Made by a program: the position numbers and the translations under genes
Shown: positions 17,883-63,216 of the stretch, in pieces
Position numbering within the stretch: the stretch's first letter is position 1
Layout of the letters: each line of letters starts with the position of its first letter
The notes under the pieces: model-generated
Database searches by the model: none
The model's input: only the letters and a program-made list of their open reading frames with translations
What the model was told of the DNA's origin: nothing
From: Candidatus Woesearchaeota archaeon
GTDB lineage: Archaea; Nanobdellota; Nanobdellia; Pacearchaeales; GW2011-AR1
Assembly: GCA_964601175.1 (NCBI GenBank)
Contig: CAZRMJ010000004.1
Span: forward strand, 1 to 63,218
Reading direction: 5' to 3'
Length of the DNA stretch: 63,218 nt

Positions 17883-18134
17883 CTAAATTCCTAAGAATTT
17901 TAAGAGTTCATATACTAAAAATGCAGGCCAGACCATTGCTTTCAATATACCAAGAACACCCATCCAAAAACCAGTAGATATAGAAACATAGTAAATAGCA
18001 GCACCGACAGCTCCAAGACAATAAACTCCTGAGCCACATCCACCCTTGCCACGTTTACACTTATGATGCATGCACATTTCTTCATCCATATTCATCATTT
18101 TTCTATGCTTCATAGAATAACAAGAACAATGCAA
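17883..18134 (-). CDS. Small membrane protein with Cys/Met/His-rich N-terminus
   Basis: 83 aa; MHCSCYSMKHRKMMNMDEEMCMHHKCKRGKGGCGSG followed by two hydrophobic helices. Confidence 0.45.
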   Translation of the reverse strand: MHCSCYSMKHRKMMNMDEEMCMHHKCKRGKGGCGSGVYCLGAVGAAIYYVSISTGFWMGVLGILKAMVWPAFLVYELLKFLGI

Positions 18135-18145
18135 TATAAAAAGTT

Positions 18146-18243
18146 ATGGCCCTACGAGGAATACTTCAACTCTTAGTTGAAGTTAGATTACGACTTGTTC
18201 GTAATCGTACGTTCGATTCCTTGAAAATGGCCCTACGAGGAAT
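18146..18243. repeat. 17-nt direct repeat of the tRNA-Arg(TCG) 3' end flanking a 64-nt twin-hairpin cassette
   Basis: atggccctacgaggaat occurs at 18146-18162 and 18227-18243. Between them are H1 ACTTCAACT/AGTTGAAGT (18163-18183) and H2 GATTACGA-CTTGT-TCGTAATC (18186-18206). gttcgattcct (18211-18221) is the inverted copy of the T-loop region at 18238-18248. Confidence 0.85.
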
Positions 18244-18300
18244 CGAACCTCGATCACAGGATCCGAAGTCCCGTATTCTAATCCATTAAACTATAGGGCC
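18228..18300 (-). tRNA. tRNA-Arg (anticodon TCG)
   Basis: Hand-folded 73-nt cloverleaf: acceptor GGCCCTA/TAGGGCC, D loop with GG, anticodon arm CGGGA-CTTCGGA-TCCTG, T arm CGAGG-TTCGATT-CCTCG, discriminator A, no encoded CCA. Confidence 0.85.
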
Positions 18301-43936: not shown

Positions 43937-44449
43937 ATGATAACTGCACATATAACTTCCGAGAAAATACACTCCACTTCTAGTGAAGCATTTAGTTTAT
44001 ATGAGAAATCAAGATTCGGAGAAAAAGTAAGAGACAGAATAGAATATTCATGGATTGAAGCCCTATTTCTAAAAAGTAAATTCAAAATATCTTTACAAAG
44101 AAACAATAAAGAGCTTCAGTTAGAAAATGCAATAAATCTTGCAAAAAAACACGATAAAAGAATAGAAACAAAATTAGCAGTATTTGAAAGTTTAAGAAAC
44201 AAAGGATATGTTGTAAAAACAGCCTTAAAATTTGGTGCAGATTTTAGAATCTATAAAAAAGGATCAAAGCCAGGAGAAGATCACGCCCTATGGTTAGCAT
44301 ATGCTGTAAGGGAATCTGAGCCCCATACATGGCACGATTTTGCAGCAAAAAACAGAGTAGCACATTCCACAAAGAAGAAATTACTAATATGCATAGTAGA
44401 CGACGAAAATGATGTCTTATATTACGAAGTATCTTGGTTGAAGCCTTGA
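43937..44449 (+). CDS. endA: tRNA-splicing endonuclease (short, homotetramer-size subunit)
   Basis: 170 aa; YVVKTALKFGADFRIYKKGSKPGEDHALWLAYAV matches the EndA catalytic-domain pattern (Y..H..K triad context). Confidence 0.8.
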   Translation: MITAHITSEKIHSTSSEAFSLYEKSRFGEKVRDRIEYSWIEALFLKSKFKISLQRNNKELQLENAINLAKKHDKRIETKLAVFESLRNKGYVVKTALKFGADFRIYKKGSKPGEDHALWLAYAVRESEPHTWHDFAAKNRVAHSTKKKLLICIVDDENDVLYYEVSWLKP

Positions 44450-45571: not shown

Positions 45572-45820
45572 ATGGGTAGAATAAAACAATTAATGGTAAA
45601 GAGAGCTAGTAAGGAGCTTGTCTTAAAGGAATCTTCATTTAACGAAGCTTTCGATGATAACAAAAAAATACTTGGAAGCACAATGCCTAGTAAAAAGGTA
45701 AGAAACAAGATAGCAGGGTATATTGCTAGGTTAAAGAAAGCAGAAAGAATTGCAAAAGAAAATCCCCAATCTAGAATAAGAAAAACAGAAGACGTCGAAA
45801 AAGAAACATCTTATTCTTAA
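45572..45820 (+). CDS. rps17e: 30S ribosomal protein S17e (eS17)
   Basis: 82 aa; MGRIKQLMVKRASKEL..SKKVRNKIAGYIARL. Confidence 0.8.
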   Translation: MGRIKQLMVKRASKELVLKESSFNEAFDDNKKILGSTMPSKKVRNKIAGYIARLKKAERIAKENPQSRIRKTEDVEKETSYS

Positions 45821-46020
45821 GATTTTTTAACAATATTATTTATTCTACTTTCAATACGTTTAAGCCTTTCATCTATATCGTGAAGTAACATTCTTCTTTT
45901 TCTATTAAAATAAAGAGTAATAGCTTGTATTATTATCCAAATAACTACTACAAGACCAACGGCCTGTATCCATAATCCAATTTTTCCAAGCTGAATAGCC
46001 ACATCTTCAATAACAGCCAT
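45817..46020 (-). CDS. Small single-pass membrane protein
   Basis: 67 aa with one TM helix and a basic coiled C-terminus. Confidence 0.35.
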   Translation of the reverse strand: MAVIEDVAIQLGKIGLWIQAVGLVVVIWIIIQAITLYFNRKRRMLLHDIDERLKRIESRINNIVKKS

Positions 46021-46042
46021 AGAATATCATAGCACAATATCT

Positions 46043-46050
46043 TTAAAAAA
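46043..46050 (+). promoter_or_regulatory. TATA box for tRNA-Met
   Basis: TTTAAAAA starting 29 nt upstream of tRNA +1 (46072). Confidence 0.5.
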
Positions 46051-46071
46051 GCTGGCCAGCATATCAATTTT

Positions 46072-46143
46072 GGCTGTGTAGCTTAGTGGTAGAGCGCGAG
46101 TCTCATAAGCTCGAGGTCGGGAGTTCAATTCTCCCCACAGCCA
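46072..46143 (+). tRNA. tRNA-Met (anticodon CAT; elongator-like, but Ile2-type cannot be excluded)
   Basis: 72-nt cloverleaf: GGCTGTG/CACAGCC, D arm GCTT-AGTGGTA-GAGC, anticodon arm CGAGT-CTCATAA-GCTCG, T arm GGGAG-TTCAATT-CTCCC, discriminator A. Confidence 0.85.
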
Positions 46144-46259
46144 TTAGAGAATTGAATGGAGTTCAATTACTTTAACTCGTAAGAGTTTAAGTCACATTTG
46201 TGACTTGTTCACAAATAGTGCTCCCCACAGCCATTAGAGAATTGAATGGAGTTCAATTA
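46131..46259. repeat. 39-nt perfect direct repeat (tRNA-Met 3' end plus 26 nt of trailer) flanking a 51-nt twin-hairpin cassette
   Basis: ctccccacagccattagagaattgaatggagttcaatta occurs at 46131-46169 and 46221-46259. Between the copies are H1 CTTTAACTC-GTAA-GAGTTTAAG (46170-46191) and H2 ATTTGTGA-CTTGT-TCACAAAT (46196-46216). Confidence 0.9.
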
Positions 46260-49186: not shown

Positions 49187-49259
49187 AGCGCGGAACAGGA
49201 TTCGAACCTGCGAATACTCGGGCTGCAGCCGAGCGCGTTAACCACTTCGCCATCCGCGC
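49187..49259 (-). tRNA. tRNA-Cys (anticodon GCA)
   Basis: 73-nt cloverleaf: GCGCGGA/TCCGCGC, anticodon arm CTCGG-CTGCAGC-CCGAG, T arm GCAGG-TTCGAAT-CCTGT, discriminator U as expected for Cys. Confidence 0.85.
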
Positions 49260-49311
49260 ATACGCATGTATGGAGGATACTGTGAATTTCAATTCACTCC
49301 ATCCGCGCATA
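49250..49311. repeat. 13-nt direct repeat of the tRNA-Cys 5' end flanking a 36-nt hairpin-containing insert
   Basis: ccatccgcgcata occurs at 49250-49262 and 49299-49311 (minus sense TATGCGCGGATGG = 3 leader nt plus tRNA nt 1-10). The insert at 49263-49298 contains GTGAAT-TTCA-ATTCAC. Confidence 0.85.
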
Positions 49312-49930: not shown

Positions 49931-50045
49931 ATGTTCAAATCCTTAACGACCCCGACAGGATTCCTTCAACTTTTAAAAGTTGAATGGGACTGAAGTGACT
50001 TGTTCACTTCAGGATGTTCAAATCCTTAACGACCCCGACAGGATT
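49931..50045. repeat. 32-nt perfect direct repeat (tRNA-Arg(TCT) 3' end plus 18 nt of trailer) flanking a 51-nt twin-hairpin cassette
   Basis: atgttcaaatccttaacgaccccgacaggatt occurs at 49931-49962 and 50014-50045. Between the copies are H1 TTCAACTTTT/AAAAGTTGAA (49966-49985) and H2 CTGAAGTGA-CTTGT-TCACTTCAG (49990-50012). Confidence 0.9.
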
Positions 50046-50104
50046 TGAACCTGCGGCCTGCTGATTAGAAGTCAGCTGCTCTATCCAGGCTGAGCTACGG
50101 GGTC
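50030..50104 (-). tRNA. tRNA-Arg (anticodon TCT)
   Basis: 75-nt cloverleaf: GACCCCG/CGGGGTC, D arm GCTC-AGCCTGGATA-GAGC, anticodon arm GCTGA-CTTCTAA-TCAGC, T arm GCAGG-TTCAAAT-CCTGT, discriminator G. Confidence 0.85.
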
Positions 50105-50127
50105 ACGAAAATGAGAATAAAAAATCC

Positions 50128-50190: not shown

Positions 50191-51087
50191 ATGGAAATGG
50201 AAGTAGTCTGCCTAGGTACGGCAAGTGCGGTACCAAGTAAAAAGAAAAATCATAGCGGATTTTTAGTAAAAACAGAAAAGCACAAAATTCTAGTAGACTG
50301 TGGGGAAGGAATACAAAGACAATTTAAATTTGCAGAAGAACCCGTAACAAAACTAACACACTTACTTATAACCCACTGGCACGAAGACCATTCTATTGGA
50401 CTATTTCCCTTACTAAAATCAATGGGCATGAACAATTATAGTCAAACTCTTCAAATTTACGGACCCAGAACAACAAAAGAAAAAATAGATTTACTACAAA
50501 AGATATATTCTAAATATAGGATAAACGTAAAAGTAAATGAAATAAGTTCAAAGTTAGTTTACGAAGACAATGACTTAAAAATAGAAGCTGAAGAGATGGA
50601 TCATGGAATAGAAACTCTTGCATACAATATAATTTTAAAAGATAAATTAAGAATAGACAAATCAAAAATAAAAAAATTAAAACTCCCAAATTCTCCCTTG
50701 ATAGGCCAACTTCAACAAGGAAAAGATATCAAATTTAATAATAAGACAATAAAATCCAAATCGGTAACTTATATTGAAAAAGGAAAAAAATTGACTATAA
50801 TCCTAGACACTGCAATGAATCAAAATGCTATAAAAATGACAAAAGATTCCGATTTACTAATATGTGAATCAACATATTCCAAAGAAGAGCCAGAACAAGC
50901 AAAAGAATACAAACATCTTACAACTATTCAAGCAGCAGAAATTGCAAAAAAAGCAAAAGCAAAAAGACTAGCGCTAGTCCATATCTCAGATAAGCATCTT
51001 CACAGAACCAATCAACTACTAAAAGAAGCAAAATCAATATTCAAAAACACATCAATCCCAGAAGATTTGCAAAAAATAAAGATATAA
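50191..51087 (+). CDS. rnz: Ribonuclease Z (tRNA 3' endonuclease, MBL fold)
   Basis: 298 aa; LGTASAVPS, LLITHWHEDHSIGL, and a C-terminal LVHIS. Confidence 0.8.
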   Translation: MEMEVVCLGTASAVPSKKKNHSGFLVKTEKHKILVDCGEGIQRQFKFAEEPVTKLTHLLITHWHEDHSIGLFPLLKSMGMNNYSQTLQIYGPRTTKEKIDLLQKIYSKYRINVKVNEISSKLVYEDNDLKIEAEEMDHGIETLAYNIILKDKLRIDKSKIKKLKLPNSPLIGQLQQGKDIKFNNKTIKSKSVTYIEKGKKLTIILDTAMNQNAIKMTKDSDLLICESTYSKEEPEQAKEYKHLTTIQAAEIAKKAKAKRLALVHISDKHLHRTNQLLKEAKSIFKNTSIPEDLQKIKI

Positions 51088-61056: not shown

Positions 61057-61127
61057 TGGCCCCACCAAGAATCGAACTTGGGCCTCGTCCACGTCAAAGA
61101 CATGTTCTACCATTAGACTATGGGGCC
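61057..61127 (-). tRNA. tRNA-Val (anticodon GAC)
   Basis: 71-nt cloverleaf: GGCCCCA/TGGGGCC, anticodon arm TGTCT-TTGACGT-GGACG (two G.U pairs), T arm CCAAG-TTCGATT-CTTGG, discriminator A. The D stem has one mismatch. Confidence 0.75.
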
Positions 61128-61194
61128 TTTTCACACTCGGCAGTGAGAAGGTCCACAACGAAGTGAGGAACCTCGCAACAAGAGAGGGTGAAAA
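61128..61194 (-). other. 67-nt stem-closed structured element between the promoter and tRNA-Val +1
   Basis: Minus sense: TTTTCAC..GTGAAAA 7-bp closing stem abutting the tRNA, with internal hairpins CCTC-TCTTGTTGC-GAGG, GGTTC..GGACC and CACT-GCCG-AGTG. Confidence 0.4.
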
Positions 61195-61218
61195 TATATT
61201 AACAAATCCAAACGAGCG

Positions 61219-62674: not shown

Positions 62675-63082
62675 GTGATAGGTATGACTAATAAAAAGCA
62701 ACTATCTAAAGAAGGAGAACTAAGGTTTGCATCTGAATTCATAAGAAAAGGATGGAATGTTTTCTTACCCTATGGAGAAGATGGTCCAATAGATTTGCTT
62801 TTAGAAAAAGAGGGTCAATTTAAAAGAATACAGATAAAATCAACATCTCCAATAAATGGTACTATACATTGCAGAATAAAATCTTCTAATAACTGGCAAA
62901 TCAAAAAGTATACAAAAAAAGATATAGATTATTTCGGAATTTATGATTATTCCAATAAAAAAGGATACTTTATACCAATAGAAGAAATGGAAGGATTTGG
63001 AGAAACAATATTAAGAATAGAAAAAACAAAAAACAACCAGTCCAAGGGAGTTAGGCTGGCAGAAAATTATGTTTATTTCTAA
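62675..63082 (+). CDS. PD-(D/E)XK-fold nuclease-like protein
   Basis: 135 aa (GTG start, or ATG at 62684); GELRFASEFIRKGWNVFLPYGEDGPIDLLLEKEGQFKRIQIKST fits a D..(D/E)xK/QxK nuclease core. Confidence 0.5.
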   Translation: MIGMTNKKQLSKEGELRFASEFIRKGWNVFLPYGEDGPIDLLLEKEGQFKRIQIKSTSPINGTIHCRIKSSNNWQIKKYTKKDIDYFGIYDYSNKKGYFIPIEEMEGFGETILRIEKTKNNQSKGVRLAENYVYF

Positions 63083-63124: not shown

Positions 63125-63216
63125 GCCTCTGTAGCTCAACGGTTAGAGCAATAGTTTTGTAAATCCAGAGATTTCAAAACAACTATAGGTTGGGGGTTCG
63201 ATTCCCTCCAGAGGCT
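63125..63216 (+). tRNA. tRNA-Thr (anticodon TGT) with a ~19-nt canonical 37/38 intron
   Basis: GCCTCTG/CAGAGGC acceptor, D arm GCTC-AACGGTTA-GAGC, anticodon stem ATAGT/ACTAT, loop TTTGTA|intron 63162-63180 (aatccagagatttcaaaac)|A, T arm GGGGG-TTCGATT-CCCTC. Confidence 0.8.

Follow-up and report, generated by a model that had tools for sequence, protein, structure and literature searches.

The window, that is, the whole stretch of 63,218 nucleotides analysed here, is a housekeeping region of 32% G+C from a DPANN archaeon of the Pacearchaeota/Nanoarchaeota type, and its genes include those of GatB, ProRS, GlyRS, ribosomal proteins and, probably, EndA and RNase Z. The tRNA-Arg(TCG) gene of this region (Table 1) is intact, but its 3' end is present a second time downstream. 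The repeated sequence, ATGGCCCTACGAGGAAT, is the reverse complement of the tRNA from A58 to the discriminator base 73 plus 1 nt, and occurs exactly twice, at the positions originally given, whereas shuffled sequences give an expectation of 0. The 64-nt insert between the two copies carries two hairpins, H1 (ACTTCAACT-CTT-AGTTGAAGT) and H2 (GATTACGA-CTTGT-TCGTAATC), exactly as they had been described; folded together as single-stranded DNA they reach -13.3 kcal/mol (z = -7.1), a value equalled by none of 200 shuffles. An inverted copy of the T-loop region (invT, GTTCGATTCCT), complementary to positions 18238-18248, had been said to lie outside the repeat, and does so. According to the folds, it has two possible partners, the real T-loop and the ATTCCT of the distal copy; pairing of its 5' part (AGGAAT) with the latter closes a three-way junction (helix P1 of the RNAalifold consensus). 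On the tRNA strand, the locus reads: tRNA ...GGTTCGATTCCTCGTAGGGCCA / T TTTCA AGGAATCGAAC GTAC / GATTACGA-ACAAG-TCGTAATC / TA / ACTTCAACT-AAG-AGTTGAAGT / ATTCCTCGTAGGGCCAT / AACTTTTTATATTG....

Table 1. Positions in the window of the parts of the modules and of the other features mentioned in the text
Feature	Positions	Strand	Remarks
Cys/His-rich ORF	17883-18134	minus	83 aa
Arg-TCG distal repeat copy	18146-18162	minus	Displaced tRNA fragment, A58-73 plus 1 nt
Arg-TCG H1	18163-18183	plus	9-bp stem, loop CTT
Arg-TCG H2	18186-18206	plus	8-bp stem, loop CTTGT
Arg-TCG invT	18211-18221	minus	11-nt inverted copy of tRNA positions 53-63 (T-loop and 3' T-stem)
Arg-TCG proximal repeat copy	18227-18243	minus	A58-73 plus 1 nt, within the working gene; repeat 17 nt, start-to-start spacing 81 nt
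tRNA-Arg(TCG) gene	18228-18300	minus	Intact, without encoded CCA; ARAGORN; Rfam tRNA 66.4 bits
Probable EndA gene	43937-44449		170-aa ORF
Met module	46071-46259	plus	tRNA 46071-46144; repeats 46131-46169 and 46221-46259 (39 nt, start-to-start spacing 90 nt)
Met invT	46147-46156
Met H1	46169-46192
Met H2	46196-46216
tRNA-Cys gene	49187-49259	minus	Region of the 5'-end duplication, 49250-49310
Arg-TCT module	49931-50105	minus	tRNA 50029-50105; repeats 49931-49962 and 50014-50045 (32 nt, start-to-start spacing 83 nt); invT within the repeat
Arg-TCT H1	49963-49987
Arg-TCT H2	49990-50012
Probable RNase Z gene	50191-51087		On the 5' side of tRNA-Arg(TCT)
tRNA-Val gene	61057-61127	minus	Leader of about 65 nt, 61128-61200
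PD-(D/E)XK nuclease gene	62675-63082		Directly upstream of tRNA-Tyr(GTA)
tRNA-Tyr(GTA) gene	63125-63216		Contains an intron; at the end of the window

Both repeat copies and the cassette between them are found in independent Logan assemblies from other samples. The module of two of these is identical to that of the window (L001, SRR31643649; L033, SRR23493590), and that of a third differs by a single C-to-T change in the distal copy (L036, SRR6837583). Hence, although some Logan contigs end inside or beside the repeats (L004, L041), an assembly artefact or a chimeric join has practically no chance of explaining the repeat: 3-4 independent assemblies from different samples span the whole module, and orthologous modules occur in NCBI, ENA and JGI assemblies of other species. 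The artefact reading is refuted by these independent assemblies and by the orthologous locus of L045. Several Logan or ENA contigs (L002-L004, L034, L035, L041) end inside the tRNA-Arg(TCG) or the Met repeat, which suggests that tRNA-linked repeats or their variants break short-read assemblies of this organism. Short perfect repeats at about half of the tRNA genes of the window bear on such assembly breaks and also on false CRISPR or pseudo-tRNA calls.

Directly after the distal repeat lies an ORF for a Cys/His-rich membrane protein that has no Pfam match. A TATA-like sequence (TTTTTATATT) begins 4 nt past the repeat, ahead of this ORF. The gene is wholly missing from an 80% relative (L037), where tRNA-Arg abuts a peptidase gene.

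A module family at four tRNA genes

The tRNA-Arg(TCG) locus had been presented as the third one with the module and the one with the shortest repeat. The tRNA-Met and tRNA-Arg(TCT) loci are indeed real, and the 17 nt of tRNA-Arg(TCG) compare with 32 and 39 nt at the other two. Furthermore, the module is also found in other genomes, so that the family occupies four tRNA genes, three of the window (Arg-TCG, Arg-TCT and Met) and one, Leu-TAA, of two other Pacearchaeota-like genomes. The repeat pairs of Met and Arg-TCT each bracket an H1-like hairpin and an H2 hairpin with the loop CTTGT, and all three hairpins of the window that combine this loop with a stem of at least 5 bp adjoin tRNA genes whose 3' end is repeated.

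Five modules, which we call Arg-type, have the same order on the tRNA strand: tRNA, a trailer of 2-12 nt, invT (9-13 nt complementary to tRNA positions 53-63), hairpin A (H2'), hairpin B (H1') and a copy of the tRNA starting from A58. The inserts measure 51-64 bp and contain no ORF, and the hairpins are 1-5 nt apart. The left edge of the repeat always falls in the T-loop, at A58 in Arg-TCG, Arg-TCT, L045, L011 and L083 and at C61 in Met, whereas the right edge varies from +1 to +25 nt beyond the gene end (position 73). In the Met module, unlike in the Arg modules, the H1-H2 cassette is reverse-complemented relative to the tRNA and interrupts a second, pseudo T-arm at 60/61 (GGAGTTCAATT / cassette / CTCCCCACAGCCA); a closing stem GGAG/CTCC keeps the three-way-junction layout.

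The hairpins had been called the same at all loci; they are homologous without being identical. Common to the cassettes are the H1 sequence and the H2 core GACTTGTTC (the core being shared by Arg-TCG, Met, Arg-TCT and L011), whereas in the outer H2 stems every difference is compensated. The H1 arm motif CTTYAACT/AGTTRAAG recurs in all modules with small variations, the form CTTYAACT being present in the four modules of the pattern scan. In all six modules (6/6), the H1 end abuts A-W-T, i.e. tRNA positions 58-60 on one strand or the other. Moreover, the strand that carries CTTGT is the C-rich one in the window, L011, L045 and L083. This uniform orientation of the cassette relative to strand composition at four independent sites is suggestive but not significant.

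RNAalifold, applied to six modules with no prior structure, returned a three-way junction made of P1, hairpin A and hairpin B, with 25 pairs of which 10 show compensatory changes. P1 joins the 5' part of invT to the distal AATCC and encloses both hairpins; this T-loop-derived helix of 4-6 bp is the only terminal inverted match in the module. H2 is 97.9% paired and six of its eight pairs are changed on both sides, a covariation score reached by 0 of 500 shuffles.

The strict cassette pattern was scanned against 185,579 GTDB species genomes (one genome per species), JGI metagenomes and IMG/VR. Seven matches were obtained in the GTDB genomes, of which only one is real: L011, a MAG labelled Woesearchaeota with a module at tRNA-Leu(TAA). 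The 21 matches in the JGI metagenomes are all due to chance, and IMG/VR gave 0. The Leu cassette of L011 closely resembles the one at Met in the window: 23 of 24 positions of H1 are identical, the CAC spacer and the AGTG tail are the same, and three compensated pairs differ in the outer stem of H2. Walking along conserved synteny added orthologous modules at Arg-TCT (L045-L047, GlyRS 80% identical to that of the window) and at Leu (L083/L084, ArgRS 76% identical to that of L011). No further double-hairpin cassette was found beyond the known ones in 190 kb of related loci. The window holds no other exact or near-exact copy of H1 or H2, and its other loci share the architecture and core motifs only. 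Among Rfam families, only the tRNA itself matches, the scores of the cassette being all far below the gathering threshold. Since our literature search found no published description, the module itself appears to be undescribed.

Gain, loss and evolution of the copies

Comparison with related genomes revealed that the Arg-TCT module is present in a relative of about 80% identity and that its presence is polymorphic among close strains. Thus, L040, which is 98.4-98.9% identical to the window (100% for GlyRS), lacks exactly 83 bp at Arg-TCT, corresponding to the cassette and one repeat. One repeat copy, including invT, is retained, and the alignment breaks inside the 32-nt repeat, as a clean indel does. 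Since L045 has an orthologous module with the same 9-bp H2 stem, this empty allele is most simply interpreted as a loss. At the other tRNA genes, relatives have sites that were never occupied: L037 and L039 (GatB about 80% identical) have tRNA-Arg(TCG) with no invT, cassette or repeat; in Met relatives at 84, 80 and 76% the tRNA abuts the neighbour gene, with no module and no invT; and L080, an 83% relative of L011, has no module at Leu. Therefore, the Arg-TCG, Met and Leu modules were gained in particular lineages, those of Arg-TCG and Met in that of the window.

The two repeat copies do not evolve alike everywhere. The tRNA-Arg(TCT) of L045 shows three differences from that of the window within positions 58-73, all compensated in the stems, and its distal copy carries the same three changes, being identical to its own tRNA at 18 of 18 positions. 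Elsewhere the distal copy has decayed, by 1 nt in L036, by 3 of 17 in L011 and by 5 of 9 (acceptor part) in L083. Of the two invT of L045, only the first is perfectly preserved, the second having decayed. The Arg-TCT modules of the window and L045 are 81.7% identical, compared with 84.4% for the tRNA and about 78% for coding DNA. When the Leu modules of L011 and L083 are compared, an unrelated perfect 9-bp hairpin has taken the place of hairpin A and H1 shows two compensated pairs, whereas the tRNA and its intron are 96% identical. Such a swap beside so conserved a tRNA therefore indicates turnover rather than slow drift.

A possible insertion module and competing readings

We tentatively favour, at somewhat less than an even chance, the interpretation of these loci as miniature insertion modules that are non-autonomous and have att-like repeats on both sides. 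The repeats can be viewed as att-like because their left edge is fixed in the T-loop while their right edge varies past the gene. An insertion module is suggested because four different target tRNAs carry homologous cassettes, because presence and absence vary among relatives and because distal copies decay as displaced fragments do. Integration is known to split the tDNA, the element restoring the gene and the displaced fragment marking the other end (PMC4383910), and the T-loop is one of the preferred integration sublocations (10.1101/2020.11.02.365908).

The family would consist of gene-less modules of about 80-90 bp lodged in the part of tRNA genes from the T-loop to the 3' end, with a unit made of tRNA 58-73, a short trailer, invT, hairpin A and hairpin B. 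This unit would recombine into a tRNA gene at position 57/58: its own 3' segment would restore a working tRNA, and the original 3' end would be displaced downstream as the distal repeat. Recombination between the repeats would remove the unit and leave one copy. H1, conserved in sequence, and H2, conserved in structure, would be the parts expected to be recognised by a recombinase acting in trans, most likely a T-loop-specific tyrosine integrase or, alternatively, a hairpin-recognising single-strand enzyme. The 32- and 39-nt repeats, which include invT, may be re-occupied sites that had kept a solo repeat such as that of L040. Through the alternation of occupied and empty states, both copies would stay compatible with the tRNA, as in L045, whose 18 of 18 identity is expected if the copies alternate as the working 3' end or are homogenised. 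The anatomy, the recurrence at four tRNAs, the gain and loss, the geometry of the repeats and the covariation of the stems are direct observations; we infer that the module moves as a unit, which of the two repeat copies would be its own and what enzyme may act on it.

Several observations weaken the insertion-module reading. Cassettes within one genome differ much, which indicates no recent copy burst; a double-stranded circle of 80-90 bp is physically implausible; and the presence of invT within the Met and Arg-TCT repeats presupposes an earlier event at that site. Furthermore, no recombinase gene, free form or wide recurrence was found. No integrase, transposase or HUH gene is present among about 30 scanned ORFs of the window, nor among those ORFs of the relatives' contigs that are recognisable by sequence or by precomputed Pfam matches. 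In IMG/VR, neither a free form nor an attP-like arrangement came to light: searches with the three tRNA 3' ends as possible attP sites gave 0, 0 and one unrelated high-GC contig, and the 28 matches to the free-element order (H1' ... core ... H2') have no H2 stem longer than 4 bp.

A bolder version, which we regard as rather unlikely, makes the module a live, self-repairing mobile element of about 80-90 nt, equipped with two hairpins for recognition and with a tRNA 3' end that replaces the original one. It would flip in and out of the T-loop, probably as single-stranded DNA because of its size and of the uniform orientation relative to strand composition. Both repeat copies would alternate as the working tRNA 3' end, which would explain their co-evolution with the tRNA. 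If this were true, it would be the smallest integrative element described.

The insertion-module reading is also weakened by orthologous modules that keep their hairpins through compensation despite a decayed distal copy, as in L083; such conserved hairpins fit host selection better than a dead mobile element. The main rival, to which we grant an appreciable though minority chance, is a structured 3'-flank element under host selection. InvT, the two hairpins and the distal AATCC would form a three-way junction, either in the trailer RNA or in single-stranded or cruciform DNA, with possible roles in trailer processing, insulation of the downstream promoter or termination, and the tRNA-derived repeat would be mere raw material for helix P1. 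The RNAalifold junction with its compensatory pairs and the covariation of H2 are what such selection would leave, as are the identity of the Arg-TCT module between the window and L045 (close to that of the tRNA and above that of coding DNA), the first invT kept intact in L045 and the whole junction of L083. The architecture is moreover maintained in Met, although the cassette is inverted. However, on the tRNA strand the conserved H2 loop of Met reads as the reverse complement of that of the Arg modules. The distribution is sporadic as well: about half of the tRNAs of the window are concerned, several relatives have none, and the module was lost in a strain of about 98.5% identity. In addition, a T7 run, which is a strong archaeal terminator, lies between the tRNA and the module in L083 and makes co-transcription doubtful there, and no Rfam family matches. 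Finally, palindromes can self-correct by template switching (quasipalindrome mutagenesis), and this mimics covariation without selection.

The same process underlies another, unlikely reading in which the loci are mutational by-products, neither mobile nor functional. Template switching or slippage at the palindromic T-arm would have produced invT and the direct duplication, and the hairpins would be quasi-palindromes kept perfect by arm-to-arm correction. Sense, antisense and sense T-loop copies do follow one another, most clearly at Met (real T-arm, invT and GGAGTTCAATT again), an analogous case is tRNA-Cys, where a hairpin and an inverted junction copy accompany the duplication of 11 nt of the 5' end, and loss by simple repeat recombination is seen in L040. 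Yet this reading leaves unexplained both the presence of the same H1 and H2 core GACTTGTTC at four unrelated tRNA genes in two genomes and the A58 boundary fixed in five modules.

Alternatively, the modules could be stripped relics of kilobase-sized integrated elements whose interior was deleted, leaving attL, attR and the innermost arms. CIMEs are elements without integration and transfer genes that have kept attL and attR (PMC6323972), and such relics would be an extreme case of them. The geometry of the repeats suits this possibility as well as it suits an insertion module, and gene islands lie beside tRNAs in relatives, at tRNA-Leu in L080 and at tRNA-Arg(TCT) in L045. We nevertheless consider it quite improbable. 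It needs deletions down to the same two hairpins, 1-5 nt apart, on at least four separate occasions; no full-length relative with H1 or H2 was found in the loci examined, IMG/VR or the GTDB genomes; and the L080 island has no second att copy beside it.

The loci could also be read as a non-canonical tRNA intron or an alternative 3' exon, the first copy and the cassette being removed and the tRNA body (1-57) joined to the distal copy, but this has very little in its favour. In the minimum-free-energy fold of the complete precursor, the distal copy pairs with the 5' acceptor strand and invT with the T-loop, and probable genes for EndA and RNase Z are located in the window. However, no bulge-helix-bulge (BHB) exists at the junctions within the tRNA, where the central helix forms at most 2-3 of its 4 pairs, nothing is conserved at the junctions between Arg-TCT orthologs, the contiguous gene already makes a complete tRNA (66-74 bits) and the distal copy has decayed in L083 and L011. 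A BHB intron was rejected. A 10/10 BHB score at Met corresponds to the trailer and rests on AGUU/AGUU with two G-U pairs; the shuffle control is uninformative, since shuffling the insert does not affect junctions located within the repeat. Hammerhead, K-turn, C/D-box, integron attC and IS91 (GTTC/CTTG target) were compared by eye, and none fits.

Known elements and other tRNA-linked features

The module is best classed among tRNA-gene insertions, as a new and extremely reduced variant at the far end of the CIME range, although a new structured flank element is a credible alternative. As in other tDNA-integrated elements, the repeat corresponds to the 3' part of the tRNA from a loop sublocation through the gene end, and an empty allele with a single att copy exists (L040 versus the window); no integrase lies inside the 51-64 bp insert, which has no ORF. 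With islands and proviruses of tyrosine integrases, the module shares a regenerated tRNA, a displaced fragment downstream and the coexistence of empty and filled alleles among strains. It differs from them by having neither integrase nor cargo, by its two hairpins and inverted T-loop copy, by the lack of any integrase in 63 kb and by the occurrence of its cassette in both orientations. The retention of attL and attR with loss of integration and transfer genes, which defines CIMEs, also describes the module. Like Firmicutes CIMEs, it has lost integration genes and kept both att sites, and its movement would depend on a helper. However, those CIMEs are kilobases long and bacterial and their parental ICEs are known, whereas the module is shorter than 100 bp and has no known parent.

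PATEs derived from IS200/IS605 and REP/REPIN sequences resemble the module in being small, non-coding and built of hairpins, with a conserved structure and a partly conserved sequence. They too have no terminal inverted repeats. The H1 end of the module always follows A-W-T, and the uniform orientation of the cassette with respect to strand composition in four contexts is a further likeness. In contrast, they make no target duplication and do not target tRNA T-loops, and the module is much shorter than known PATEs and has a flanking repeat. No TnpA or RAYT gene was seen among the scanned ORFs of the window. Casposons are known to insert at tRNA 3' ends (PMC5137440), and the repeat-insert-repeat arrangement (32-39 / 51 / 32-39 nt) is reminiscent of a CRISPR array with one spacer, i.e. 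of Cas1-type integration. Nevertheless, casposons have a fixed target duplication of 14-15 bp, terminal inverted repeats and a Cas1 gene, while the repeats of the module range from 17 to 39 nt, its inserts are homologous to one another and no cas genes accompany it. A CRISPR array was rejected since its repeats would be tRNA 3' ends and its "spacers" hairpins homologous to one another, and since the scanned window ORFs include no cas gene. A MITE derived from a DDE transposon was rejected as well, the repeats (17, 18, 32 and 39 nt) not being of fixed length and there being no terminal inverted repeats beyond P1.

A model in which MGEs drive the disruption of archaeal tRNA genes has been proposed (PMC3293823). 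Disrupted tRNA genes recall the module by the tRNA fragment nearby and by the exon-complementary sequence next to the break, but the tRNA of the module is not disrupted, and it has no BHB and no recombinase gene between the fragments. On either the insertion or the host-element reading, these loci are a tractable case for the disruption, duplication and splitting of archaeal tRNA genes. An insertion would mean that the integrate-and-restore logic known at tRNA genes fits in a gene-less unit of less than 100 bp, and that such units are a recurring source of tRNA-gene fragments that confuse annotation in archaeal genomes and MAGs. If the module is under host selection, tRNA genes of DPANN archaea, a group in which RNA processing is poorly known, would have a new flanking cis element.

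Several other tRNA genes of the window and of its relatives have unusual surroundings. In tRNA-Cys, the 5' end from -1 to +10 (TGCGCGGATGG) is duplicated 50 nt upstream, and the 38-nt insert between the copies holds an inverted copy of the junction as well as the hairpin GTGAATT-GA-AATTCAC. The spacing between the TATA box and the upstream copy is normal. L040 and L042 share this insert, which is missing from the 80% relative L045; it looks like an equivalent, on the 5' side, of the 3' modules. The tRNA-Val gene is separated from a TATA-like box by a G+C-rich leader with T-arm-like strings (GCGAGGTTCCTCAC), no Rfam match and a fold z of only -1.6.

As for neighbouring genes, the ORF on the 5' side of tRNA-Arg(TCT) encodes a metallo-beta-lactamase protein with the motif HWHEDH, probably RNase Z, and the 170-aa ORF probably encodes EndA, the tRNA splicing endonuclease; precomputed Pfam matches on the corresponding proteins of related contigs are the basis of both assignments. 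The gene upstream of tRNA-Tyr(GTA) encodes a small nuclease (PDDEXK_5, E = 1e-21). At positions 4474-9073 of L045, an insertion of 4.6 kb that the window does not have lies between RNase Z and the 5' side of tRNA-Arg(TCT) and encodes proteins of 49, 960 and 469 aa, the last one with a PRC domain. Also in L045 (12917-13238), a block made of tRNA-Met and the gene of a 65-67-aa membrane protein is inverted and carries no cassette, as established by comparison with positions 45817-46144 of the window and 2725-3051 of L043. Downstream of tRNA-Leu(TAA) in L080 (3196-9450), where no second copy of the tRNA 3' end was found, an island encoding nucleotidyltransferase/HEPN, RHH and DUF6036 proteins takes the place of the module.
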